Made by a program: the position numbers and the translations under genes. Below are positions 588 through 59,476 of a DNA stretch of 64,000 nucleotides, in pieces. Location: contig CAZPMS010000002.1 of NCBI GenBank assembly GCA_964588165.1, forward strand, positions 15,951 through 79,950. The letters are read 5' to 3'. The stretch's first letter is position 1; the number at the start of each line of letters is the position of its first letter. The stretch comes from an uncultured Gammaproteobacteria bacterium (GTDB lineage: Bacteria > Patescibacteriota > Patescibacteriia > UBA1558 > UBA10009). The notes under the pieces are model-generated. The model was given only the letters and a program-made list of their open reading frames with translations, was not told where the DNA came from and ran no database searches.

Positions 588-598
588 ATGATTAAAAA

Positions 599-660
599 TT
601 AATGATTGCCGCGCCCCGCTTGTGAAGCGAAGCGGAGTCGGGCCGGGGATAATTAAAAAT
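599..660. repeat. GC-rich repeat family B, copy 1. Its core 'ccgcgccccgcttgtgaagcgaagcggagtcgggccgggg' lies about 20 bp upstream of the start of the minus-strand gene 1..587.
   Basis: It is near-identical (1 mismatch over about 55 bp including the 'taatgattg' leader) to 2448-2497. It is flanked by the direct repeat 'attaaaaatt' (591-600 and 652-661). Confidence 0.7.
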
Positions 661-812
661 TTGATATATAAAAAAACCGCCTACTTAGGCGATAAATTTT
701 GGGAAAATAGATACTACGGCCTGCCTTGGGCGACCTGAATTTTTTTGAATTTTTCCACATCGTCCGAACATCTATAATAGTATATATCTTTTATTTAGGC
801 GGGTCAAATAGT

Positions 813-1529
813 TTACCAACCTTTGTTTTCTATGGCTTTTTGAGCAGCATCTACCTGCGCTTCTTGCTTAGAAGTGCCTTCGCCTTCGGCAATTAGTTCA
901 TTCTCTAAATAAACACCAACCTTAAAGAATTTATTGTGGTCTGGTCCGTTTTCTTCCAAAACTTTATAAACCGGAGTAGTGCTAAAGAATTCCTGGGATT
1001 TTTCCTGAAATTTACTTTTAGGGTCTTGGTAGAGATGATTTTCTAAGATATGAGGCAGTTTTATTAAAATATTATCACTAATAAATTTATCAGCTGCTTT
1101 CATTCCTTGATCTAAATAAATAGCTCCAATAATAGCTTCCATGGCATTAGCCAAAATATAATTACGGGCCTTAGGATTGGCATCCTGTTTTTCGCCTTTG
1201 CTCATATACAAAAATTCTTCAATTTCCAGTGCGCTGGCAATTTCGGCCAACATCTTGGCGTTAACCAAGCTGGCACGCCAATTGGTTAGCTCGCCTTCTG
1301 GGTTAGGATAGTTTTTATAAAGGTATTCCGTGGTGACCATCTCTAAAACAGCATCGCCCAAAAATTCCAACCTTTCATTGTGGTCTAGGGGAAAATTTTT
1401 ATGTTCATTAATGTATGAACGATGGACGATAGATGATTTTAGGAAATCTTGATTTTTAAAAGATAAGCCAAGATTTTTTTCTAACTTTTTTAGTTCTTTC
1501 ATAAATTGTAGTTGTATAGCGTATAACAT
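813..1529 (-). CDS. rnc: Ribonuclease III
   Basis: The ERLEFLGDAVL RNase III signature is present, and a C-terminal dsRBD-like region (KFFKVGVYLENELIAEGEGTSKQEAQ). Confidence 0.9.
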   Translation of the reverse strand: MLYAIQLQFMKELKKLEKNLGLSFKNQDFLKSSIVHRSYINEHKNFPLDHNERLEFLGDAVLEMVTTEYLYKNYPNPEGELTNWRASLVNAKMLAEIASALEIEEFLYMSKGEKQDANPKARNYILANAMEAIIGAIYLDQGMKAADKFISDNILIKLPHILENHLYQDPKSKFQEKSQEFFSTTPVYKVLEENGPDHNKFFKVGVYLENELIAEGEGTSKQEAQVDAAQKAIENKGW

Positions 1530-1571: not shown

Positions 1572-2435
1572 TTATTTAATATTTAATTTTTTAAAAGCTG
1601 CATTTAAAATCCCTAAAGCATTTTCGTAGCCGACTATTTTTTTAGCCTCATCTTTATTTACCCATTTAGCGTCTTTTACTTCTGGCTCATTGGTGATTTT
1701 TAATTTGTCATCAGTAGTTTCTATTAAAAAGTAGTAGACAGTTTTAGGAACAGGCCTTTTATTTGGCTCTTTTACTTTTATTTCAATACTATCTAAATAA
1801 CCTAAACTTTTTACATTGTTTACTCCGATTTCTTCTTTAATTTCCCTTAGGGCGGCATTTTCTTTGTCCTCATTTTCTTTTATGTGGCCTTTGGGGAAAG
1901 TCCATTTGTTATAGGCATCTAAAATTAAAGCGAATTTATAATTATTATCCTCTTTTTTAAAAACTACGCCACCGGCAGAAAATTCTTTTGGCGGTTCGGT
2001 TTCAAATTCTTTTTTTTCGCCGGTTTTTTGCATGTCTTTAAAAACACTGCCTAAAACTCCGTTAACAAATTTACCAGAAGATTCACCGCCATAAGTTTTT
2101 GCCAACTCAATAGCTTCATTAATAGCAACTTTTGGAGGAATTTCTTTAGAAAATTTTAATTCAAAAATTCCAATACGCAAAACATTTCTATCTACTGTGG
2201 TAATTTGTTCAATTGGCCACTCCGGAGCATATTTTTTTATCATTTTATCAATTTCGGGAACTTTTTCAGCGATACTTTTAATTAGATTTTTAGAAAAATC
2301 TTGATCATCAAAACCCTGTGCAAATTCATCTCGATTATTCTCTAAAAGTTTTTGTAGGTTTTCTTTTTTTTCATTAAAGTCCCATTGGAAAAGACTTTGT
2401 AAAACTAAAGTTCTGGCTAAATGTCTGTTGGACAT
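1572..2435 (-). CDS. nusB: NusB (transcription antitermination factor) N-terminal domain fused to a C-terminal NUDIX hydrolase domain.
   Basis: N-terminus: LARTLVLQSLFQWDF...DRNVLRIGIFEL...KVAINEAIELAKTYGGESSGKFVNGVLGSV, which is NusB-like. C-terminus: GGVVFKK...GHIKENEDKENAALREIKEEIGV, a Nudix box of the form Gx5Ex7REUxEExGU. Confidence 0.8.
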   Translation of the reverse strand: MSNRHLARTLVLQSLFQWDFNEKKENLQKLLENNRDEFAQGFDDQDFSKNLIKSIAEKVPEIDKMIKKYAPEWPIEQITTVDRNVLRIGIFELKFSKEIPPKVAINEAIELAKTYGGESSGKFVNGVLGSVFKDMQKTGEKKEFETEPPKEFSAGGVVFKKEDNNYKFALILDAYNKWTFPKGHIKENEDKENAALREIKEEIGVNNVKSLGYLDSIEIKVKEPNKRPVPKTVYYFLIETTDDKLKITNEPEVKDAKWVNKDEAKKIVGYENALGILNAAFKKLNIK

Positions 2436-2441
2436 AAATTG

Positions 2442-2509
2442 ATGATTAATGATTGCCGCGCCCCGCTTGCGAAGCGAAGCGGAGTCGGGCCGGGGATGAT
2501 TAATGATTG
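2442..2509. repeat. GC-rich repeat family B, copy 2. A 40-bp GC core (2456-2495) is flanked by a perfect 14-bp direct repeat 'atgattaatgattg' (2442-2455 and 2496-2509).
   Basis: The core differs from copy 1 at a single position. It lies 20 bp upstream of the nusB-NUDIX start codon. The flanking direct repeats look like a target-site duplication. Confidence 0.75.
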
Positions 2510-2540: not shown

Positions 2541-2744
2541 TTATTTCTTTTTCTTTTTATCTAAAGCAGATTTTATTTTAATTGCCTCTTTACCTTTGTA
2601 ATAACCGCATTTAGTGCAAGCTGTGTGCCCTAAAACAGGGTTTTGGCAATTAGAACAAAGTTTAGGCTTGGTTGCTTTTAGAGCGAATTGTGAAGCCCGT
2701 CTTTTTTTAGATGATTTAGTCCGTTTCTGTGTTGGTACACCCAT
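2541..2744 (-). CDS. rpmF: 50S ribosomal protein L32
   Basis: MGVPTQKRTKSSKKRRASQ...CSNCQNPVLGHTACTKCGYYKGKE. This is an L32-like N-terminus with a Cys4 zinc-ribbon, plus a K-rich tail. Confidence 0.8.
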   Translation of the reverse strand: MGVPTQKRTKSSKKRRASQFALKATKPKLCSNCQNPVLGHTACTKCGYYKGKEAIKIKSALDKKKKK

Positions 2745-2777: not shown

Positions 2778-2806
2778 AGTATAGGTAAATGAGATCTTTT
2801 TGTCAA
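2778..2806 (-). promoter_or_regulatory. Sigma70-like promoter for rpmF: TTGACA, 17-bp spacer, TATACT.
   Basis: The reverse complement reads ttgacaaaaagatctcatttacctatact. Confidence 0.5.
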
Positions 2807-7731: not shown

Positions 7732-8664
7732 TCATTTTTGGGGAAATTTTTGTTTTGGTTGGCGTTTATTTAATACAGCCAAAAATATCAGAACCACTAT
7801 GGCTATTGCAAATAACCAGAAGTTTTTATACCAAGCCTTAGGGTAAGTTGCCGGCAAAGTAATTAGTTTTTGGTTTCCGGCTTTATCCACGGCTTTTATT
7901 CTGATTGTCTTATCCAGACTTTGATACTTTAGCAGGTAGGGGCTAACAGCTCTAGTGTATGGCCTTAAGCCTTCACTGATTTCGTAATAATCAATACCGG
8001 AGTTTTTATCATGAGCCATAAAAACCAGAAAATATTTTCCATCAAAAATAGAATCATCTTTAGAGATATATGGATCAAATGATTCAGGGGGGTAGTCGTC
8101 TTCAACTGGGGTGTAAGATGGTAGCGTAGCTATATCTAAAATTTCAAAATCAAATGGGCTAAGGGCTAGCTGGGCTGGCGTACCAAGGCCATCATTAAGT
8201 AAAACTCTAGCTTGGTTAAGGCTAAGATTGGCTAAGCCTAAATTTTTTGCCTTAAAAATAATATCAAATACTTTACCAGGCCTATAACCTTGGTAGTAGG
8301 GGCTTAAAATTCCTTTAGAGCCACCAGGTGTAATGCCACTAAAATTTATTTGGCATATATCTTGGCATTGGTAAATAGGCTTTTGGATCCATAAAGCAAT
8401 AATAGAGCCTCCTTCATTTATTTCTATTAACTCCAATAAATTATTATCAAAAATAATTTTTCCTTCAACAGCATTAATTAATTCATTTTGAGTATCTAAC
8501 ATTAGACTAACTTTAAATAGCTGCTTTTTGGCTGGTTTACTATTTTCAGCCTCAAAAAACATAGTGGCCGCCAGTAATTTATTAGAAACAAAAAACAAGC
8601 CTGCTATTAAAATGACCAATAAAAGATATTTATTTATTTTAAATTGTGGTTTATTATTTTTCAT
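7732..8664 (-). CDS. Hypothetical surface protein with an N-terminal signal/anchor and a C-terminal TM anchor.
   Basis: N-terminus KYLLLVILIAGLFFVS. C-terminus WLFAIAIVVLIFLAVLNKRQPK. Last gene of the co-directional cluster. Confidence 0.45.
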   Translation of the reverse strand: MKNNKPQFKINKYLLLVILIAGLFFVSNKLLAATMFFEAENSKPAKKQLFKVSLMLDTQNELINAVEGKIIFDNNLLELIEINEGGSIIALWIQKPIYQCQDICQINFSGITPGGSKGILSPYYQGYRPGKVFDIIFKAKNLGLANLSLNQARVLLNDGLGTPAQLALSPFDFEILDIATLPSYTPVEDDYPPESFDPYISKDDSIFDGKYFLVFMAHDKNSGIDYYEISEGLRPYTRAVSPYLLKYQSLDKTIRIKAVDKAGNQKLITLPATYPKAWYKNFWLFAIAIVVLIFLAVLNKRQPKQKFPQK

Positions 8665-8676
8665 TTTTAAAATAAA

Positions 8677-9621
8677 TTAACTTGTCCAGTAATATGCCAT
8701 TATACTAAAATCCACCAGATCAATTTTACCGTCATTATTTAAGTACTCTGCTTCAATTTGGGCAAACTCTTCATTTAAAGGTTTATTGTACCAATAAGCC
8801 ACTATAGAAAAGTCAACTAAGTTAACTTGGCCGTCGTTATTAACATTGCCTCTTATAAACACATTCTCTTCCATTAAAATATTTTCGGTACCCACCTCAA
8901 AACCGATATTATAACTGTAACCGCTGACCATTTGGTTATTTATGGAAGCTCGGGATTTAGTGTTATGGTGCCCATAGTCTAAGATTGATGTATCAAAATT
9001 ACTTAAATAGATGCCATTGGTATCAGAACTGGTGTAGGCAAATTGTTCAATATCTGAATTAACAGCGATAGTAATATCAGCCAAGGGAGTAGTTTGGCCA
9101 AAGATAGCCAGATTATCACCTCTTTTTACTTGGCTTTTATCTATTGTAATGGTAGGAGAAATAAATACTCCGCTAACTGTAGTAATAATGCCTTGGGATA
9201 CAGTTATAGGGTAGGTTAAAATATTAGATCGCCGTTCTTCTTCATCATGGCTATAAAGAGAAAAGATATAGTTGCCAGAAGACAAGCCAGTTACATTTAT
9301 GGAAAAATTGGCGTCTGCTCCGGAAATGGTAGTGGCTATTACTTGGGTATCTTTTAATAGAGTTACTATGCTTTGAGGATAAGCTTTGCCAGTAAATATT
9401 ACACTGGTAGCCGGGGTGTTATAGCCTCCGCCACCGCCTCCTCCGCCACCGCCTCCTCCGCCACCGTTTTCTTCTTCCTCTTCTTCAGGCTCGGCTACTG
9501 TGGCGGAAACATTAACTGTTCCTTGTTCAGCTAAAACATAGTTTTGGGTAAAACCGAAAATAGTTAAAGAGATTACTAATAAAAAAATAGCAATTAATTT
9601 ATTTTTTTTGCTATTCTTCAT
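8677..9621 (-). CDS. Secreted protein with a Glu/Gly-rich linker and two C-terminal dockerin-type repeats.
   Basis: Signal peptide present. EPEEEEEENGGGGGGGGGGGGGG linker. C-terminus NVNNDGQVNLVDFSIVAYWYN...LNNDGKIDLVDFSIMAYYW, which fits the dockerin DxNxDGxIxxxD pattern. Confidence 0.6.
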   Translation of the reverse strand: MKNSKKNKLIAIFLLVISLTIFGFTQNYVLAEQGTVNVSATVAEPEEEEEENGGGGGGGGGGGGGGYNTPATSVIFTGKAYPQSIVTLLKDTQVIATTISGADANFSINVTGLSSGNYIFSLYSHDEEERRSNILTYPITVSQGIITTVSGVFISPTITIDKSQVKRGDNLAIFGQTTPLADITIAVNSDIEQFAYTSSDTNGIYLSNFDTSILDYGHHNTKSRASINNQMVSGYSYNIGFEVGTENILMEENVFIRGNVNNDGQVNLVDFSIVAYWYNKPLNEEFAQIEAEYLNNDGKIDLVDFSIMAYYWTS

Positions 9622-9633
9622 AAAATTAATTTA

Positions 9634-10647
9634 TTACTTTAAACCTCGGACTTTATTAATAATCCATTGATTATATTTTTTAAGCCCTTTTCTTAAAATA
9701 TAACCCGCTACCACTATTACTATAACCAATAAGCTTAAAAGTTGCCAAGGAAATACAAAGAAGTAATAACTATCTTGAGCCGTTTCTTTAACTTTTCTGC
9801 CATATTCCAAACTTAACTTAGCTTTGTAGATGCCAAAAGTAAAATCTTGCCATTGTTTTTTGGCAATTTGGAAAAAACCCTCAGCATTTTCTTTAAGTTC
9901 TTGATCTTCTATTTTAGGTTCCCAATCAACAGTGAACTTTCTTATGCTGCCGGGTAAAATATTGCCTTCAGAAGGATTGGCCAATAGTTCGGCAGCTGTT
10001 AAACCAATGGAGTTTTTTATTTTTAATTCACCGATCGGTTTTAACCTATCTCCGCCTTGGTTTTTAAAGCGGTAAATAAAAGAAATTGGCAGGCTAGTAA
10101 AAAATCTTTTATTATCTTTAGTACTAAATTCTAATAAGCCGCCGCCTTCGGAAATATTCTCGCCTACCCTTAGAAGGATTAAAATACCCACTTTGGCACC
10201 AACAGAAACTTGGGTTCCCCCTTGTTGTTGTGGCGGGGAAGTTCCCCAAAAAATGGCAGCAAAATAGCCGCCGTTTTCAGTATTATTTGGAACTCTAATT
10301 TTATATTTAATTTCTTTTTGTTCGCCGCCTTTTAAAGTAATTTGGCTGGGAGCCTCTATCCATGTAGCTAAACCTTCTGTAGCTATAGTAAAACTGGGTG
10401 TGCCTTCTTCGCCTTTAGATTCAAAATTTTCAAAAGTAGAATAGAAAGTTTTTTCTTCCAACTGTTCGTTTAGCAATAAGAATTTGCCTTCATATATTTT
10501 TCCGGCATCTGTAAACACTTCAATTCTAGGAGGAGAAACGGTTAATGCCTGAACAGGTCCTGCTAATAAAGATAACCCTAAAAATAGAATTAAAGTGAAG
10601 AGAAAATATTTCATTATGGTAATAAAAATATATTTATGTAATACCAA
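9634..10647 (-). CDS. Cell-surface protein with a signal peptide and C-terminal TM anchor (DUF916/DUF3324-like architecture).
   Basis: Signal peptide, roughly 300-aa beta-rich ectodomain, C-terminal TM LLSLLVIVIVVAGYIL followed by a basic tail. Confidence 0.45.
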   Translation of the reverse strand: MVLHKYIFITIMKYFLFTLILFLGLSLLAGPVQALTVSPPRIEVFTDAGKIYEGKFLLLNEQLEEKTFYSTFENFESKGEEGTPSFTIATEGLATWIEAPSQITLKGGEQKEIKYKIRVPNNTENGGYFAAIFWGTSPPQQQGGTQVSVGAKVGILILLRVGENISEGGGLLEFSTKDNKRFFTSLPISFIYRFKNQGGDRLKPIGELKIKNSIGLTAAELLANPSEGNILPGSIRKFTVDWEPKIEDQELKENAEGFFQIAKKQWQDFTFGIYKAKLSLEYGRKVKETAQDSYYFFVFPWQLLSLLVIVIVVAGYILRKGLKKYNQWIINKVRGLK

Positions 10648-10691
10648 GACTTACATTAATAAATTTTTGTTTTTTTAGCAAGTCTGTTGTT

Positions 10692-13223
10692 TTAGTAGTT
10701 GGCGGTGGCTACGAAAGTCAAGGCTGATGTATAAGTTCCGGAATCAGTATTGGAGGCAATATTGGCCAGGAAAAAGACATCATAATCTGTAGTAGCTGTA
10801 GCGCTGGAGGCTGAAGCAACTTGATCAGCAGCCGATTCTCCGTCGTAGGCATAATTGGCCGTATCATAAGGTGAAGAAGCTGTACCGCTACCGCCTGATG
10901 CAGATAATTTAATGCCAAACTGTTCAGAGCCAGCACTTGGAGCGGTTGCGCTTCCACCAATAGCCGTTATTGTATCACCATATGAATTTGTTAAAGTTGG
11001 CCCTTCTATAGTGATAGTATAACCATTGGTGGCGCTACTGGAAGCGGATAGAGTGTGAGCTACGGCCTCTGTGCCGCTGCCATCCAAGTCTCCTGTAGCA
11101 TATCTTGAATTACCGCTGTCTAAAGTTCCAAAACCAATAGTATTATCAGAAATGCTAAAAGTTAAAGTTTGAGGATTTTTTATGGTGGTAGTATTATTAA
11201 TGGCTACAGCAGTGCCAGGTGTTACAGAACCAGTAGCAGTAACTTCAGAAGAAGGGTCAGTTATTTCTATTAAGATAGTTTCATCAGCCGAAGCTCCAGA
11301 TTCAACATCCAAAACTATATAAGCACAAATTTGCGAGGTGCCAACGGTCATAGTGCCGGAAATGGTGGCGTCACTAGAGGAAAAAGAAGCAGCCGTGCCA
11401 AAAAGGCTTTCACCGCCATCGTAATTACACGATGCCGAAGTTTCATAATAAATGTCAACATTAGTTAAGTTTGAATCAGCATTAACCGTTCCGGTCTCAC
11501 TAATAATAATTTCTGTCACATCGGTACTGCCAGTATCTCTAATTAAGGTAAAAGCTCCTCCAATATATATATCTTCAGTAGGGTTTACGGCATAGCCGAT
11601 TTGGTTACCGGTAGTTCCGACAGTAATTTCTCCGCTAGCCTGTAGAGTGGTAGAACTGGGGATGGCTTCAGTTCCGGAATCGATGGTGCCAGTATTAACT
11701 GTTATTTCATTAGGCGGATCAGTAATTTCTATATCAATAACTTCACCAGCAGAAGCTCCGGCACCTACATCTAAAATAATATAAATACAATCTTGATTTG
11801 TGTCTACGTGTAGGTTGCCCGTTACCACAGCATCTTCTGAAGCATCAAAGGCGGCATCAGTGCCAAAAAGAGTTTCACCGCCACCGTAACTGCAAGAACC
11901 AGTTTGCTCATAACGAATATCCAAGTTAGCTAGATTATTTTGGGCGCTAACATCACCAGCTTCACTTACAGTAATTGATGTAATAGTTCCGCTACCGCCA
12001 TCAGCTACAATAGTAAACCAGCCGCCAATATAATTATCAGTAGAATCAACGTTAAGGTTAGCCACTTGATTATCAGCCGCTGTTAAAGTAAAAGAAGGCT
12101 CAGCTACAGTGGTTGAACCGGCAATAGCTACTGCTGTACCTGGAGTCACTGCATCAGTAGCTGTTACTTCTGAAGAAGGATCAGTAATTTCTAATTCAAT
12201 AGTTTGAGAGTCAGAAGCTCCAGGCCCTAAATTATATTCCACATAAGCACAAACTTGAGAAGTGCCTACGCTCATAGAACCGGTAACGGTGGCATTTTCT
12301 GAACCATCAAAAGCATTAGCTGTACCAAAAATCGTTTCATCTCCGTTATAAGTACAGGTAGCAGCCGTTTCATAACGAATTACAATGTCTTTTAAATTGG
12401 TTTGGGCGCTAAAAGTGCCATCAGTTTCGCTCAGAACTATTTGGGTTACAGTATCGCTGCCGGTATTTGTAACAAAAGTAAAAGCCCCGCCGGCGTTATT
12501 TACATTGGAACCGGTATAAACAGTGCCGGTTTGGGTGCCGGTGGTGCCAACAGTAATTTCGGGGCTTATAATATCTATTTGAGCACACCTGTTGGTTGAA
12601 TATTCGTGCACTCCGGTTAAGCTAATATAGTAAGTTGTGCCATATGCAGCATTGCTGGTAACTTGGAAACCCCATTCAAGTTCTGAAAATTCATAAGGGC
12701 TATTATCAATACTGATAGTTTGTGAATTGGCGCTGTTATCAATTTGTGAGCCAGCTACAAAAGAAGCAGTTGCCGGGTCGGTAATCCCGCCATCCAAGGA
12801 TACATTTGTGGTATCGCTGCCGCTGGCAAGTTGAGTATCGTACATACAAAAAGGATGGACACCGCAACTGCCACTAACTGGAATAGCCGTGAAGTCGGTG
12901 GTACAGTCTGAATTGGTGCCGTAAGTAACTCCAAAAGAAACACCATTGGCGTCTTTGGTGCCGGTATTGTGGACTAAATGCCTTACTCTAAGAACCTGCC
13001 CTCTATCTATACTGGTAGTAGCTGTATTTTCAGCAACGCCCCAACTGGCATTAACTTCATTTCCATCATCATTACGCCAACGATATGCTTCTAGATCTAA
13101 ATTTGCTACACCTGAGGCTAAAATAAATTCTAAATTTAAAATGGTAAAAAAACCAATAGCGATAACTATCACTAAAGTTGCTATAATAATTGTTTCTTTA
13201 TTTTTTTTATGATTTGTAAACAT
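10692..13223 (-). CDS. Large Thr/Gly/Ser-rich surface adhesin-like protein with an N-terminal TM anchor and three tandem domain repeats of about 140 aa.
   Basis: Repeats of the form ...DIRYE(T/Q)..(S/T)C.Y.GGE(T/S)(I/L)FGT..AF..SE....TG...V.T.Q.C.Y.....G.GAS......IEITDPSSEVTAT..VTPGTAVAI occur three times. A T8 tract lies at codons 5-8. Confidence 0.6.
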   Translation of the reverse strand: MFTNHKKNKETIIIATLVIVIAIGFFTILNLEFILASGVANLDLEAYRWRNDDGNEVNASWGVAENTATTSIDRGQVLRVRHLVHNTGTKDANGVSFGVTYGTNSDCTTDFTAIPVSGSCGVHPFCMYDTQLASGSDTTNVSLDGGITDPATASFVAGSQIDNSANSQTISIDNSPYEFSELEWGFQVTSNAAYGTTYYISLTGVHEYSTNRCAQIDIISPEITVGTTGTQTGTVYTGSNVNNAGGAFTFVTNTGSDTVTQIVLSETDGTFSAQTNLKDIVIRYETAATCTYNGDETIFGTANAFDGSENATVTGSMSVGTSQVCAYVEYNLGPGASDSQTIELEITDPSSEVTATDAVTPGTAVAIAGSTTVAEPSFTLTAADNQVANLNVDSTDNYIGGWFTIVADGGSGTITSITVSEAGDVSAQNNLANLDIRYEQTGSCSYGGGETLFGTDAAFDASEDAVVTGNLHVDTNQDCIYIILDVGAGASAGEVIDIEITDPPNEITVNTGTIDSGTEAIPSSTTLQASGEITVGTTGNQIGYAVNPTEDIYIGGAFTLIRDTGSTDVTEIIISETGTVNADSNLTNVDIYYETSASCNYDGGESLFGTAASFSSSDATISGTMTVGTSQICAYIVLDVESGASADETILIEITDPSSEVTATGSVTPGTAVAINNTTTIKNPQTLTFSISDNTIGFGTLDSGNSRYATGDLDGSGTEAVAHTLSASSSATNGYTITIEGPTLTNSYGDTITAIGGSATAPSAGSEQFGIKLSASGGSGTASSPYDTANYAYDGESAADQVASASSATATTDYDVFFLANIASNTDSGTYTSALTFVATANY

Positions 13224-23199: not shown

Positions 23200-26100
23200 A
23201 TGAAAGAATTATCTAAATCATATCAGCCAGATAAACACGAAAGCTCAATTTACCAAAAATGGGAAGAGTCCGGGTTTTTTAATCCCGATAATTTGCCAGG
23301 CAAGCGCAAGAAAGTTTTTTCTGTTAGCCTGCCGCCGCCCAATGCTACCGGCATTTTGCATATTGGCCATGCTTCGATGCTGGCTTACCAAGATATTATG
23401 GTCCGGTACCATAGGCTAAAAGGTGATAAAACTTTGTGGTTGCCCGGAACAGACCACGCAGCCATTGCCACTCAAACGGTGGTAGAAAAAAAATTAATCA
23501 AGGAAGAAAAAAAGCGCAAAGAAGATATTGGCCGAGAAGAGTTCAGAAAAAGAATAGATAAATATGTAGAAGAATCCCGTGGCACCATCCGTAAACAGCT
23601 CCGGGCCATGGGCTCATCTTTAGATTGGTCTAGAGAAAGATTTACCTTAGATAAAGATTTATCATTAGCAGTTAGAACAGCTTTTGCGAAAATGTATAAT
23701 GATGGACTAATTTATAGAGGTTATCGGATTGTTAATTGGTGCCCGCACTGTAAATCCACTTTAGCTGATGACGAAGTTGAGTATAAGGAACAAAAGGCCC
23801 CGTTTTATTATTTTAAATACGGTCCGGTGGTTATTGGTACAGCCAGACCAGAAACTAAATTTTCTGATAAAGTAATTATTGTTCATCCTAAAGATAAGCG
23901 TTTTAAAGATATCGCAGGTAAGGAATTTGAAGTGGAATGGATTAACGGCAAGATTAAAGCAAAAGTTATTACCGATGAAGCAGCTGATATGGAAATGGGA
24001 ACCGGGGCCATGACCATTACTCCGGCCCATAGTTTTGTAGATTTTGATTTGGCTCAAAAATATAAATTAAAGGTAGAAGAAATAATTGATAAAGATGGAA
24101 ATTTAACAGAAGTTGCTGGTGAATTTGCTGGTCAACCAGCTGCTAAAGCCAGAGAGAAAATTGTTAATAAGCTGGCCAAGAAAGGCTTAGTTGATAAAAT
24201 TGATGAAGATTACGTCCATAATTTATCTCTTTGTTACCGGTGTAAAACGCCTATTGAACCGTTGCCTTCTAAGCAGTGGTTTGTTGATGTAAATAAAAAG
24301 ATTCCAAAAAAAGGCAAGTCATTAAAGCAACTGGCCTCCGATGTAGTCAAAAATGGTGATATAAAAATAATTCCTGATAAATTCAACAAAACTTATTTCC
24401 AGTGGATGGATAATTTAAGAGATTGGTGTATTAGCCGCCAAATTTGGTATGGACATCAAATTCCGGTTTGGTATAGGGACGCAAAAGCGCAAAAGCGCAA
24501 AAGCGCAAAAAAGGAGCAAGATATTATTGTACCTAAAGAAATAACTGAAATCAATCTAATGCGCCACGGTTTAACTGATTGGAACAAAGACCAAAAAATT
24601 CAGGGCAGAACTAACGTGCCTCTAGATGAATCCAGCGTAGATAAAATTAATAAAATAATGCCTCAGTTAAGGTCAGAAAATTTTGATATAATTATTAGCT
24701 CACCCTTAATGAGAGCCAAACAAACGGCTGAAATTGTAAATAAACAATTAAATCTGCCTTTAATAGAAGATGAATTATTGGTTGAAAGAAATTATGGTAA
24801 ATTTGAAGGGAAAAAAGTAAATGATATAAAAAATGACCATCCTGATTATGCCAAGGATAAAATTAATTATGATATCCCAGGAGATGATGAAGAAACCTAC
24901 CAGGAGATTGCTCAAAGGCTGAAGAAGTTCATTAAACAAGTAAGTAAAGAATATCCTAACAAGAAAATTTTAGTTATATGCCACAATGCAGTTATCAGGA
25001 CTTTCAAGATGATAATAAAGGATTCCTCACCTAAGGAACTTTCTGGCTATAAACCTAGTTTTGACAAGTTGGTTAAATATCAAATTTTAGATGGTAACTA
25101 TAACCTAAAAGGTGTTGAGCAAGATCCTGACACTTTAGATACCTGGTTTTCATCTTCACTTTGGACATTTAGTACTCTTGGCTGGCCAGATAAAACTGAC
25201 GATCTTAAGGCTTATCATCCAACCAGTGTTATGGAAACCGGTTATGACATTTTATTTTTTTGGGTGGCCAGAATGATACTTATGTCCGAATACCTTTTAG
25301 GCCAGAAACCTTTTGAAACAGTTTACCTCCACGGCTTGGTTAAAGATAAAGAAGGCAGGAAGATGTCAAAGTCGCTTGGCAATGGCATTGATCCAATAGC
25401 CATGATTGATAAGTTTGGCACTGATGCTTTGCGGTTGGCTATGATTGTAGGAGCCAGTGCCGGTAATGACATCAGGCTTTACGAAGAAAAGATAGCCGGC
25501 TATAGGAACTTTGTTAATAAACTTTGGAACATCAGCCGCTACATATTATCTACTGTTGGACAAGTTAAACCAATTGAAAAATTGCCAGAAGCAAAAACTT
25601 TAGCTGATAAATGGATTCTTTTAGAATTTAATCAAATCGTAGAATCAACCACTGGTAATATTGAACAGTTTAAGTTCTCTCAAGCCGGTGAAGAGCTTTA
25701 TGAATTTACTTGGTCTAAACTGGCCGATTGGTATTTGGAAATCGCCAAGGTTGAAGAGGGAAAAGATGAGATCCTTTTATACATTTTAGAAAAGCTACTT
25801 ATTTTATGGCATCCCTTTTGTCCGTTTATTACAGAAGTTATTTGGGAGATATTTAAGACAGATAAGCTATTGATGATTAAAGAATGGCCGGAAATAAAGA
25901 AACAAGATATAAAAAACAAGATACAAGATGAATTTGAAAAAGTTCAAGAGATTGTTTCAGCTATCAGGAACACCAGGGCAGAACATCTGGCTAATCCCAA
26001 AAAAGTTTATGGTTGTTCTATAAAAACTTCAAAGAAAAAAGTGATTGAAGAGAATAAAAATATAATTGAAGCTTTGGCCAAAATTAAAATTATTCCTAAG

Positions 26101-26334
26101 GCCACTGGCGTTGCTATTAATCTTGCTTGGGCTGACATGATTTTAGATATTAAGGAAAATAGGGAAGTGGCCAAAAATAAAGCTAAAGAAACTGTAAATT
26201 TAGAACGTTATATCCAAATCCAAGAAGCAAAATTAAGGAATAAAGATTTTACTAAAAAGGCTCCACCTAAAGTGGTGGAGGAAGAAAAGGAGAAATTATC
26301 GCAAGCAAAAGAAAAGTTAGCCAAATTAAAATAG
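23200..26334 (+). CDS. valS: Valyl-tRNA synthetase carrying an inserted histidine-phosphatase (PGAM-like) domain.
   Basis: HIGH motif (PPPNATGILHIGHA). WCISRQIWYGHQIPVWY. KMSKS. C-terminal coiled coil. About 213 extra aa lie between PVWY and DPDTLDTWFSS. They contain LMRHGLTDWN (RHG), GKFEG and ICHNAVIR, the catalytic motifs of the histidine phosphatase superfamily. Confidence 0.9.
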   Translation: MKELSKSYQPDKHESSIYQKWEESGFFNPDNLPGKRKKVFSVSLPPPNATGILHIGHASMLAYQDIMVRYHRLKGDKTLWLPGTDHAAIATQTVVEKKLIKEEKKRKEDIGREEFRKRIDKYVEESRGTIRKQLRAMGSSLDWSRERFTLDKDLSLAVRTAFAKMYNDGLIYRGYRIVNWCPHCKSTLADDEVEYKEQKAPFYYFKYGPVVIGTARPETKFSDKVIIVHPKDKRFKDIAGKEFEVEWINGKIKAKVITDEAADMEMGTGAMTITPAHSFVDFDLAQKYKLKVEEIIDKDGNLTEVAGEFAGQPAAKAREKIVNKLAKKGLVDKIDEDYVHNLSLCYRCKTPIEPLPSKQWFVDVNKKIPKKGKSLKQLASDVVKNGDIKIIPDKFNKTYFQWMDNLRDWCISRQIWYGHQIPVWYRDAKAQKRKSAKKEQDIIVPKEITEINLMRHGLTDWNKDQKIQGRTNVPLDESSVDKINKIMPQLRSENFDIIISSPLMRAKQTAEIVNKQLNLPLIEDELLVERNYGKFEGKKVNDIKNDHPDYAKDKINYDIPGDDEETYQEIAQRLKKFIKQVSKEYPNKKILVICHNAVIRTFKMIIKDSSPKELSGYKPSFDKLVKYQILDGNYNLKGVEQDPDTLDTWFSSSLWTFSTLGWPDKTDDLKAYHPTSVMETGYDILFFWVARMILMSEYLLGQKPFETVYLHGLVKDKEGRKMSKSLGNGIDPIAMIDKFGTDALRLAMIVGASAGNDIRLYEEKIAGYRNFVNKLWNISRYILSTVGQVKPIEKLPEAKTLADKWILLEFNQIVESTTGNIEQFKFSQAGEELYEFTWSKLADWYLEIAKVEEGKDEILLYILEKLLILWHPFCPFITEVIWEIFKTDKLLMIKEWPEIKKQDIKNKIQDEFEKVQEIVSAIRNTRAEHLANPKKVYGCSIKTSKKKVIEENKNIIEALAKIKIIPKATGVAINLAWADMILDIKENREVAKNKAKETVNLERYIQIQEAKLRNKDFTKKAPPKVVEEEKEKLSQAKEKLAKLK

Positions 26335-51785: not shown

Positions 51786-52358
51786 ATGATCAATAAAACA
51801 CTCCTGGCCAACATTAAGAAAAAAATGGAAACTTATCAAAAAGAACGGAACCAAATTATTGGCGATTCCCGAAGAATCCTGCAGGCTTCTAAAAAAGCTA
51901 TTTTTGCTCTGCATAGAGCAGACAAAAAATCGGCTAAGCAGTTTATGGCCGATGCGGAGAAAGGTTTAGCCCAGCTTAATAAAACCTACAACAAAGGCAA
52001 CCGCTTAAGATTTGAAGGTAGTTTTAAGGCGGCGGTAGAGGAATATGTAGAAGCTAAAATGTTTGCCACTGTTTTAGAAAAAAAGAGTTTATCTGAACTT
52101 AAAATAGAAAATATTGGTCCAGAGGAATATATTGGTGGTTTAGCTGATACAACAGGTGAATTAGTAAGGCAAGCTGTTTTACAGGCAACCAATGGAAATA
52201 CCAAAGAACTCAAACGTTATAAAGAAATAACTGAAGAAATTGTAGGTTTTCTACTTACTTTATATTTAACCGGCCACATGCGTCAGAAATTTGATGAAAC
52301 CAAACGCAATTTGAAACGCCTTGAACAAATTATATACGATATACAGATTAGAAAATAA
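51786..52358 (+). CDS. Translin-family protein
   Basis: EEYIGGLADTTGELVRQAV matches the translin motif (Y.GLAD.TGEL.R). All-helical, about 190 aa. Confidence 0.55.
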   Translation: MINKTLLANIKKKMETYQKERNQIIGDSRRILQASKKAIFALHRADKKSAKQFMADAEKGLAQLNKTYNKGNRLRFEGSFKAAVEEYVEAKMFATVLEKKSLSELKIENIGPEEYIGGLADTTGELVRQAVLQATNGNTKELKRYKEITEEIVGFLLTLYLTGHMRQKFDETKRNLKRLEQIIYDIQIRK

Positions 52359-59065: not shown

Positions 59066-59476
59066 TTATTTCACCTTATCTAAAACCGGTTTTATGTTTG
59101 GAGCCAAATCATCCGGCAGTTCATCAACCGGAAACCAGTTCCATTCTTCAATATCTTCTGCCGGTTTTATCTCACCGATTCGTTTAGCTAAATAGTGGAC
59201 TAAGATTATGTAACCGCCATCTTCTTTTTTATGCAAAAATATATCAATTAGTTTGGCAATTTCAATATCTATGCCCATTTCTTCTTTACATTCCCGTTTG
59301 GCAGTATCTTCTAAAGAAGCGTCAAAATCTTCCATTTCTCCGCCACAAAATTGCCATTTAGGATTAGGCTTTTTATCTGTTTTTTTGTGTTTGTTTAATA
59401 AAGTTTGGAGTTTCCCATCACGCTCTTCTATAATAACCGGTCCGGCTGCAATCAGGGAATTTGGTGGTAAGTTCAT
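59066..59476 (-). CDS. NUDIX hydrolase
   Basis: GGEMEDFDASLEDTAKRECKEEMGI Nudix box. Confidence 0.7.
   Translation of the reverse strand: MNLPPNSLIAAGPVIIEERDGKLQTLLNKHKKTDKKPNPKWQFCGGEMEDFDASLEDTAKRECKEEMGIDIEIAKLIDIFLHKKEDGGYIILVHYLAKRIGEIKPAEDIEEWNWFPVDELPDDLAPNIKPVLDKVK

Follow-up and report, generated by a model that had tools for sequence, protein, structure and literature searches.

The stretch analysed here, 64,000 nucleotides (nt) of contig CAZPMS010000002.1 from a Komeilibacteria-like Patescibacterium (hereafter the window, meaning this whole stretch), carries on its minus strand, at 1572..2435, a single ATG-started open reading frame (ORF) of 287 amino acids (aa) plus stop codon, free of internal stops, in which a complete NusB is joined to a Nudix domain. 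To our knowledge NusB is a universal single-domain factor, and we know of no enzymatic or ligand-sensing appendage to it. An earlier note on this DNA had claimed full NusB and Nudix domains in one ORF, a canonical Nudix box, and a position immediately upstream of rnc, and all three claims hold: the protein scores 138.3 bits against TIGR01951, the NCBIfam nusB equivalog model (cutoff 88.35), and 66.4 bits against Pfam NUDIX PF00293 (gathering score 21.1); its box, GHIKENEDKENAALREIKEEIGV, fits the consensus exactly; and rnc lies downstream on the same strand after a gap of 42 nt. With residues numbered on the 287-aa protein, the gene, its parts and its downstream neighbour are as follows.

1572..2435, minus strand: nusB::nudix gene, a single ORF with Pfam NusB and NUDIX domains; identical protein in public assemblies
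2022..2435, minus strand: NusB domain, residues 1-138, seven helices (TIGR01951, phmmer against the PDB, Foldseek, AlphaFold2)
1986..2021, minus strand: flexible inter-domain linker, residues ~139-150, about 12 residues (AlphaFold2 confidence ~61, poor conservation)
1575..1985, minus strand: Nudix domain of the diadenosine tetraphosphate (Ap4A) hydrolase type, residues 151-287 (PF00293, PDB relatives)
1821..1889, minus strand: Nudix box GHIKENEDKENAALREIKEEIGV, residues 183-205 (read in the sequence, regular-expression match)
813..1529, minus strand: rnc, encoding RNase III, the next gene of the operon (TIGR02191, 230 bits)

Residues 7-131 match Pfam NusB PF01029 (E 7.9e-36, 123.8 bits against a gathering score of 23.1), and phmmer searches of the PDB with the NusB half returned T. 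maritima NusB (E 9e-28, 40% identity), Aquifex NusB (E 4e-19), and the E. coli NusB of the rrnTAC (the complex for antitermination of rRNA transcription) and lambda-N complexes (E 3e-17). AlphaFold2 folds this half into seven helices (residues 2-138) with a predicted local distance difference test score (pLDDT) above 90, and Foldseek aligns it with known NusB structures at template-modelling (TM) scores of 0.84 (1tzv, T. maritima NusB) and 0.88-0.89 (3r2d, 3r2c), the Aquifex NusB of the NusB-NusE-BoxA complex scoring 0.89. The conserved NusB motifs IPPKVAINEAIELAK and GKFVNGVLG are present, NCBIfam profiles add weak matches to the N-terminus of RsmB, and the window holds no NusB homologue besides nusB::nudix. 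The gene is the orthologous nusB of this organism, seated in a conserved rpmF-nusB-rnc slot.

The Nudix half is assigned to the Ap4A/Ap6A-hydrolase group by sequence and fold, and is not closest to RppH, NudC, or MutT. PF00293 covers residues 174-265 (E 3.4e-18), the box conforms to GX5EX7REUXEEXGU with E189, R197, E198, E201, and E202 intact, and AlphaFold2 places an alpha/beta/alpha Nudix domain at residues 151-283, with Foldseek TM scores of 0.73-0.90 to Nudix structures. Its closest solved relative is the Aquifex aq_158 Ap4A hydrolase (3i7u; E 1.4e-13, 38% identity, TM 0.90), the other best PDB relatives being Thermus Ndx1 (1vc8), human NUDT2 (3u53), the C. elegans Ap4A hydrolase (1ktg), and Chlamydia CT771 (4mpo); Ap4A/Ap6A hydrolases make up the top 7 PDB sequence matches and the top Foldseek matches. 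Curated models for other Nudix activities fell far short of their cutoffs, namely RppH (NF001936, 38.8 bits against 118), YtkD (TIGR02705, 26.8 against 154.4), NAD+ diphosphatase or NudC (NF001299, 20 against 158), MutT (TIGR00586, 24.6 against 97.9), and MutT1 (NF052459, 39 against 475), and BsRppH appeared in the PDB search only at E 3e-5. The 287-aa protein contains no cysteine, and therefore no NudC-type zinc site, and the SQPWPFP motif is also missing.

Alignment with NUDT2 pairs K182, K231, and Y270 with K42, K89, and F128, residues that we take to contact the polyphosphate or stack on the adenine in Ap4A-hydrolase structures; NUDT2 Y82 finds no aligned counterpart. The three are putative phosphate and base binders. 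E198 aligns with NUDT2 E58, whose E58A form, presumably catalytically dead, was crystallised in 4ijx. The E58A protein has been assayed beside the wild type (PMC8616924).

The AlphaFold2 run, made with a 61-sequence alignment, gave a mean pLDDT of 91 for the whole protein, more than 90 in both domains, and a predicted TM score of 0.54, the sole weak block being residues 139-150 (pLDDT ~61), where conservation is poor except at G139-E140-K141. The model indicates two domains that fold independently and are linked by some 12 flexible residues, with a mutual orientation that is not confident. A Dcp2-like two-domain resemblance was rejected as superficial: Foldseek aligns 236-258 columns, but at a root-mean-square deviation of 11-16 Å.

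Recurrence of the fusion and its operon states

The same fusion, for which the earlier note had advised a search in related genomes, is general among the best-matching relatives of this gene. Assemblies from NCBI, JGI, ENA, and Logan contain an identical protein on 5 contigs, and both Pfam domains are present in 120/120 of the best protein clusters (clustered at 90% identity), which share 51-100% identity with the window protein and, two truncated entries apart, measure 277-303 aa. Named entries among these clusters are called only 'transcription antitermination factor NusB' and come from Patescibacteria, Komeilibacteria, Nomurabacteria, and Parcubacteria; one homologue, P0043, 64% identical, was found in 142 index blocks on contigs of up to 963 kb. 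A scan of GTDB species representatives, from which the best 80 loci (38-71% identity) were kept, extended the distribution to genomes labelled Komeili-, Paceibacteria/Parcubacteria, Niyogi-, Giovannoni-, Taga-, Lloyd-, Ryan-, Taylor-, and Nomurabacteria. Among the 84 related loci examined, which include these 80, NusB and Nudix share one stop-free frame in 84/84, the Nudix domain has been lost in none, and the fusion is kept down to ~25% Nudix-domain identity, with NusB and Nudix divergence correlated at r = 0.78. A phmmer search with the Nudix half against 1.8 billion cluster representatives returned mostly stand-alone Nudix proteins of 135-160 aa, together with six further NusB::Nudix representatives.

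A union of two genes by frameshift, missed stop codon, or chimeric assembly, the event that the earlier note had named as fatal to its claim, has virtually no probability left: the protein recurs identically across several assemblers and archives, P0043 fills 142 blocks, the halves are fused in frame in every best cluster and every locus, and the only separate-gene versions form a distinct clade with sequences of their own. The architecture is unusual, as that note had it, when set against model bacteria, but in Parcubacteria- and Komeilibacteria-type Patescibacteria it is the standard nusB gene. An apparent nusB-nudix-rnc triple fusion in one locus (L016) was discarded, the 391-aa ORF there being due to a masked run of N.

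The gene order around the fusion is equally persistent. In 83/84 fused loci rnc follows on the same strand, at a distance of 400 nt or less (or overlapping the stop-free frame) in about 80 and of 552-1033 nt in 5. The remaining parts of the unit in the window are these.

2541..2744, minus strand: rpmF (ribosomal protein L32), first gene of the unit (PF01783)
2778..2806, minus strand: promoter-like site TTGACA-17-TATACT upstream of rpmF (11/12 consensus positions; pattern match only)
676..693, minus strand: hairpin resembling an intrinsic terminator, with a T7 run behind it, beyond rnc (pattern match only)

With a promoter-like site before rpmF and a terminator-like site after rnc, rpmF-nusB::nudix-rnc looks like one transcription unit, as judged by these pattern matches.

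Across the loci compared, the slot occurs in three states, all of which share rpmF upstream of nusB and the pairing of nusB with rnc. The nudix-less state, rpmF-nusB-rnc, is found in Berkelbacteria-like Patescibacteria (L092-L094), in the gene order leuS-yceD-rpmF-nusB-rnc, and the plain NusBs of these organisms are the closest NusB relatives of the second, split state. In the split state, rpmF-nusB-nudix-rnc, nusB and nudix are separate, overlapping genes (L086, L087, L089): the locus of its member P0131 (45% identical) reads rpmF-nusB(153 aa)-nudix(149 aa)-rnc, with nusB and nudix overlapping by 4 nt, in two independent assemblies. The pair at 7543-8450 of L086 overlaps by 4 nt, an ATGA within the A-rich caaaaATGAaaag, and the pair at 2396-3260 of L089, a 61%-identical member of the P0131 clade, by 14 nt. 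Such overlaps suggest translational coupling, and a gene boundary that a small change could convert into a fusion. The third, fused state, rpmF-nusB::nudix-rnc, is that of the window and of L001-L085 (Parcubacteria and Komeilibacteria). Distant stand-alone Nudix relatives lie in unrelated contexts (L088, L090, L091).

The nusB gene of the rpmF-nusB-rnc slot appears to have taken in an adjacent Nudix gene of the Ap4A-hydrolase type. The fusion, by far the larger group, extends across Parcubacteria-type lineages, and the split form, a single clade, is a sister state with two separate overlapping genes in the same slot. In a neighbour-joining tree of 310 Nudix domains (100 bootstraps), the split clade, comprising 14 clusters whose Nudix proteins are 61-100% identical to one another, was monophyletic in 88/100 replicates, and 109/110 fused domains had another fused domain as their nearest neighbour.

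One Berkelbacteria-like locus (L093, positions 1-2284; GCA_030647355.1, JAUSIS010000006.1) also encodes, just upstream of its plain rpmF-nusB-rnc operon, a leucyl-tRNA synthetase (LeuRS) that contains a Nudix insert (box GGMEKDETPMQAVEREVFEETGY) and gives a Ser_hydrolase match, which is of note since aminoacyl-tRNA synthetases (aaRSs) are a source of Ap4A.

What the Nudix domain may do

The box that is canonical in the window protein is not canonical throughout the family. All four Nudix-box glutamates are kept in 34/80 fused GTDB representatives, and at least one is replaced in 46/80. E198 is replaced in 36/80 (by K in 17, S in 6, V in 5, I in 3, A in 3, and R in 2), and box variants such as RKIKEE, RSIKEK, and REIKEK recur in a clade-specific manner. 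In the window's own clade (the fused proteins whose Nudix domains are 41% or more identical), G183, E189, R197, E198, E201, E202, and G204 are canonical in 34/34. Among unfused relatives, 199/200 keep all four glutamates, including all 14 split-form proteins. A second set of positions in the fused domains has not moved at all, or hardly: G155, W178, T179, K182, W258, and Y270 are invariant in 80/80, and K231 is lysine in 76 and arginine in 4. With the glutamates often lost and K182, K231, and Y270 kept, the conserved role of the fused domain looks like binding, and probably is so, with hydrolysis optional. Where the earlier note had assumed an enzymatic role, more than half of the fused representatives, though not this protein, have lost at least one catalytic glutamate and kept the putative ligand residues.

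The setting of such a domain can be sketched from characterised systems. NusB and NusE bind the boxA of nascent pre-rRNA. Mutations in nus and rnc interact genetically, and the rrnTAC, which includes SuhB, an enzyme fold whose recruitment depends on NusB, loops the leader to RNA polymerase and raises co-transcriptional RNase III cleavage (PMC4807359; bioRxiv 10.64898/2026.03.17.712431). CF Im25, a Nudix protein without catalysis, binds Ap4A with micromolar affinity as part of an RNA-processing factor (PMC2425470).

The reading we favour, tentatively and with somewhat less than even confidence, is that the fusion places a Nudix-type nucleoside-polyphosphate binding site on the NusB of the boxA complex, hydrolysis being optional. 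The NusB half, with S10/NusE, would bind a boxA-type element on the nascent pre-rRNA, remain with RNA polymerase, and help deliver the 16S flanking helix to RNase III, the product of the next gene; the tethered Nudix domain would add its binding site to this NusB-boxA-polymerase complex. The likeliest ligand would be Ap4A or a related dinucleoside polyphosphate (Np(n)N), or the chemically similar 5'-triphosphate (5'-ppp) or Np4-capped end of the nascent leader, and its binding, as a sensor or a 5'-end anchor, would be the conserved Nudix function. In this genome and its clade, where the full catalytic set is retained, the ligand would probably also be hydrolysed (Ap4A to ATP and AMP, or a 5'-PPP or capped end to a 5'-monophosphate), and in many other lineages the domain would have been kept as a non-catalytic reader. 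A more specific form of this proposal has the domain read Ap4A/Np4N, or a 5'-ppp/Np4-capped pre-rRNA end, while taking over from SuhB the bridging and stabilising part known in E. coli, so that rRNA antitermination and hand-over to RNase III would respond to nucleotide stress or 5'-end status and hydrolysis would serve as an optional signal reset, kept in some clades including this one and lost in others; in that full form we consider it doubtful.

Several observations weigh against the binding-site proposal. The 64-kb window contains no rRNA operon and no rRNA leader; a search of the window for boxA (GCTCTTTAACAA, at most 2 mismatches) gave 13 matches against 13.4 expected, with 0 in the operon leader. 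The roles given to K182, K231, and Y270 rest on the NUDT2 alignment and on general knowledge of Ap4A-hydrolase structures, and for G155, W178, and W258 invariance could have a purely structural reason. The difference in glutamate retention between fused and unfused proteins (Fisher p ~1e-29) is inflated, as shared ancestry was left uncorrected. The AlphaFold2 model has no defined inter-domain geometry, and the fused Nudix domains carry a mean net charge of -5.8, compared with +0.3 in stand-alone relatives, an acidity that argues against extensive RNA-backbone binding. Finally, the fused Nudix domains were monophyletic in 0/100 neighbour-joining replicates, at a mean fused-to-fused distance of 1.2 that denotes saturation; so short and saturated a domain does not show a single origin, and the direction of change may have been fusion or secondary fission.

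Catalysis itself might instead be the point of the fusion. The domain would then be an RppH-like 5'-end pyrophosphohydrolase or Np4N decapper, brought by NusB to the nascent rRNA leader, where it generates a 5'-monophosphate and so opens the leader to clearing or trimming by 5'-end-dependent RNases, side by side with RNase III. The intact box of the window protein and its whole clade and the conserved operon with rnc are as this account would have them, and the chemistry has precedents: NUDT2 trims PPP-RNA to P-RNA, as RppH does (PMC8616924), Np4N caps occur on bacterial RNA, and RppH and ApaH decap Np4N-RNA in E. coli (PMC7044304). Action on the RNA 5' end is accordingly plausible, and to this extent the earlier suggestion of activity on RNA 5' caps survives, although the RppH model is missed widely and the domain surface is acidic. 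With at least one catalytic glutamate lost in 46/80 fused representatives that nevertheless keep the domain, hydrolysis cannot be what preserves the fusion family-wide, and we think this account unlikely.

At 59066-59476 (minus strand) the window also encodes a second, stand-alone Nudix protein of 136 aa, whose nearest relatives are CTP pyrophosphohydrolase/MutT and Bdellovibrio RppH (3ees) and whose box departs slightly from the canonical form. This protein may supply the MutT or RppH function of the genome, so the fused domain is not the sole Nudix candidate there, a further point against the catalytic account.

Alternatively, the halves may be functionally uncoupled, a housekeeping Ap4A/Np(n)N hydrolase gene between nusB and rnc having been joined to its neighbour by stop-codon loss in a streamlined genome. 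The split form, whose overlapping stop and start lie beside the A-rich run caaaaATGAaaag and are fusible by a small change, shows how readily this could happen, and both the lack of fixed inter-domain contact in the model and the stand-alone relatives in unrelated contexts are compatible with independence. A housekeeping hydrolase should, however, retain its catalytic residues, which unfused relatives do and fused proteins often do not (199/200 against 34/80). Moreover, a domain never lost in 84 loci, a fusion that persists to ~25% Nudix identity, and the correlated divergence of the halves are hard to square with mere adjacency. We regard uncoupling as quite unlikely.

A purely structural role, in which the Nudix fold is a protein-protein bridge in the rRNA antitermination complex with no relevant ligand, much as SuhB links NusB/E-boxA with RNA polymerase, strikes us as improbable to a somewhat greater degree. 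The erosion of catalytic residues in many lineages is what one would expect of it, and SuhB, recruited through NusB and with an enzymatic activity thought not to be primary, is its precedent (PMC4807359). Against it stand the complete active site of the window's clade and the strict conservation of K182, K231, and Y270, the pattern expected of a retained ligand pocket if their putative roles are right.

The proposal of the earlier note that the domain acts on NAD-capped RNA, in the manner of NudC, or on (p)ppGpp draws only on the generic presence of a Nudix domain on a transcription factor and on weak sub-threshold NCBIfam matches; with the NudC model at 20 against 158 bits, no cysteine in the protein, and Ap(n)A hydrolases as the closest structures, it found no specific support and is very improbable.

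On the binding-site proposal, then, this lineage-wide fusion may link the synthesis and processing of rRNA with the binding of nucleotide polyphosphates. In the papers searched on NusB with Nudix, on NusB in the candidate phyla radiation (CPR), and on Nudix-antitermination fusions, we found no description of the NusB-Nudix architecture, and a review of the Nudix clan (PMC5389931) leaves NusB unmentioned. It looks as though this lineage-wide two-domain NusB is undescribed, its proteins being public but named only NusB; annotation as 'transcription antitermination factor NusB' alone makes the second domain invisible at present. Throughout a large bacterial radiation that is poorly understood, NusB comes with a permanently attached nucleotide-binding domain of the Ap4A-hydrolase type, and its gene keeps a fixed place in an operon with RNase III. 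Should this domain indeed read or cleave Ap4A, or the 5' ends of RNA, at the complex that transcribes rRNA, the long-debated signalling role of Ap4A would gain a concrete target, and organisms with minimal regulatory repertoires would have a new means of adjusting rRNA synthesis and processing to their nucleotide status. A natural comparative series is at hand in the nudix-less, split, fused-active, and fused-degenerate forms.

Other features of the window

A 71-nt GC-rich hairpin element occurs twice around the operon, bracketing nusB::nudix-rnc.

2438..2508, minus strand: copy in the rpmF-nusB spacer, that is, in the 5' leader of nusB::nudix (90% identity to the other copy)
591..661, minus strand: second copy, just past the rnc terminator (sequence comparison)

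The copy at 2438..2508 folds as RNA at -26.2 kcal/mol (z -3.8), with a GC-rich core in a genome of ~35% GC, and each copy is bordered by a short direct repeat of its own, resembling a target-site duplication. The rpmF-nusB spacer of relatives measures just 3-20 nt. The element is absent from 93 other loci, and its 27-nt core has 0 metagenome matches; a 20-nt core has 24, in GC-rich genomes that are unrelated and whose flanking sequence differs. As to its nature, the 71-nt element might be either a miniature mobile element or an RNase III/regulatory hairpin. The 20-nt core CCGCTTCGCTTCRCAAGCGG is found in GC-rich metagenome contigs (L096-L118) within a conserved longer context (...cagccgacttgyt-core-ctga...), and what recurs in these contigs is some other repeated or structured element, without relation to the window.

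Elsewhere in the window, 23200-26334 (plus strand) encodes a valine--tRNA ligase of 1044 aa (NF004349, 963 bits) with a histidine-phosphatase insert (His_Phos_1, cobC/PspA-like) at residues ~450-616 in its catalytic domain; the LeuRS with a Nudix insert described above is another Patescibacteria class I aaRS with an inserted hydrolase domain. At 51786-52358 (plus strand) a 190-aa protein matches PF01997 (E 4e-26), the profile of the Translin family, whose members are uncommon among bacteria. Four large ORFs on the minus strand (10692-13223, 9634-10647, 8677-9621, and 7732-8664; 843, 337, 314, and 310 aa) have no Pfam match at E <= 1e-5, and this run (7732-13223) adjoins a spermine-synthase-domain protein.

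Comparison with known systems

Residues 1-138 of the window protein correspond to the full NusB of E. coli, T. maritima, and A. aeolicus, the protein that binds boxA together with S10/NusE during rRNA and lambda-N antitermination. Characterised NusBs are single-domain proteins of ~140 aa, whereas the window protein adds a C-terminal Nudix domain of 137 residues, and the same rpmF-nusB-rnc slot holds a plain nusB in Berkelbacteria-like genomes. A known precedent within rRNA biogenesis is the 16S rRNA methyltransferase RsmB/Sun, which likewise joins a NusB-like N-terminal domain to an enzyme domain. There, however, the partner is an S-adenosylmethionine-dependent methyltransferase rather than a Nudix domain, and the NusB-like part is a paralogous domain, whereas the NusB half here is a true orthologue.

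With the Ap4A/Ap6A hydrolases (3i7u, 1vc8, 3u53, 1ktg, 4mpo) the window protein has in common the WxFPKGH motif and the canonical Nudix box. Those enzymes stand alone, at ~125-155 aa; the domain described here is attached to a transcription factor, its activity is predicted, and the catalytic glutamates are replaced in many fused orthologues. RppH and BsRppH (YtkD) share the superfamily and the polyphosphate-bridge chemistry, and an RNA-linked context is plausible for the fused domain as well, but their curated models are missed by a wide margin.

The orthologues with degenerate boxes find parallels in CF Im25/NUDT21, of pre-mRNA 3' processing, and in the sensor domain of NrtR, Nudix folds with replaced glutamates that bind without hydrolysis. 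The ligands are Ap4A/ATP for CF Im25 (PMC2425470) and ADP-ribose for NrtR (3gz8 being among the Foldseek matches). Partners and lineages differ, and unlike these proteins the window copy still has a complete catalytic box.

A further parallel is SuhB of the E. coli rrnTAC, an enzyme-fold phosphatase that joins NusB/E-boxA and promotes rRNA maturation and RNase III processing, with catalysis thought not to be its primary contribution (PMC4807359; bioRxiv 10.64898/2026.03.17.712431). SuhB has an unrelated inositol monophosphatase fold and is a separate polypeptide, whereas the Nudix domain described here, known from sequence and with hypothetical contacts to RNA polymerase and Nus factors, is built into NusB itself.

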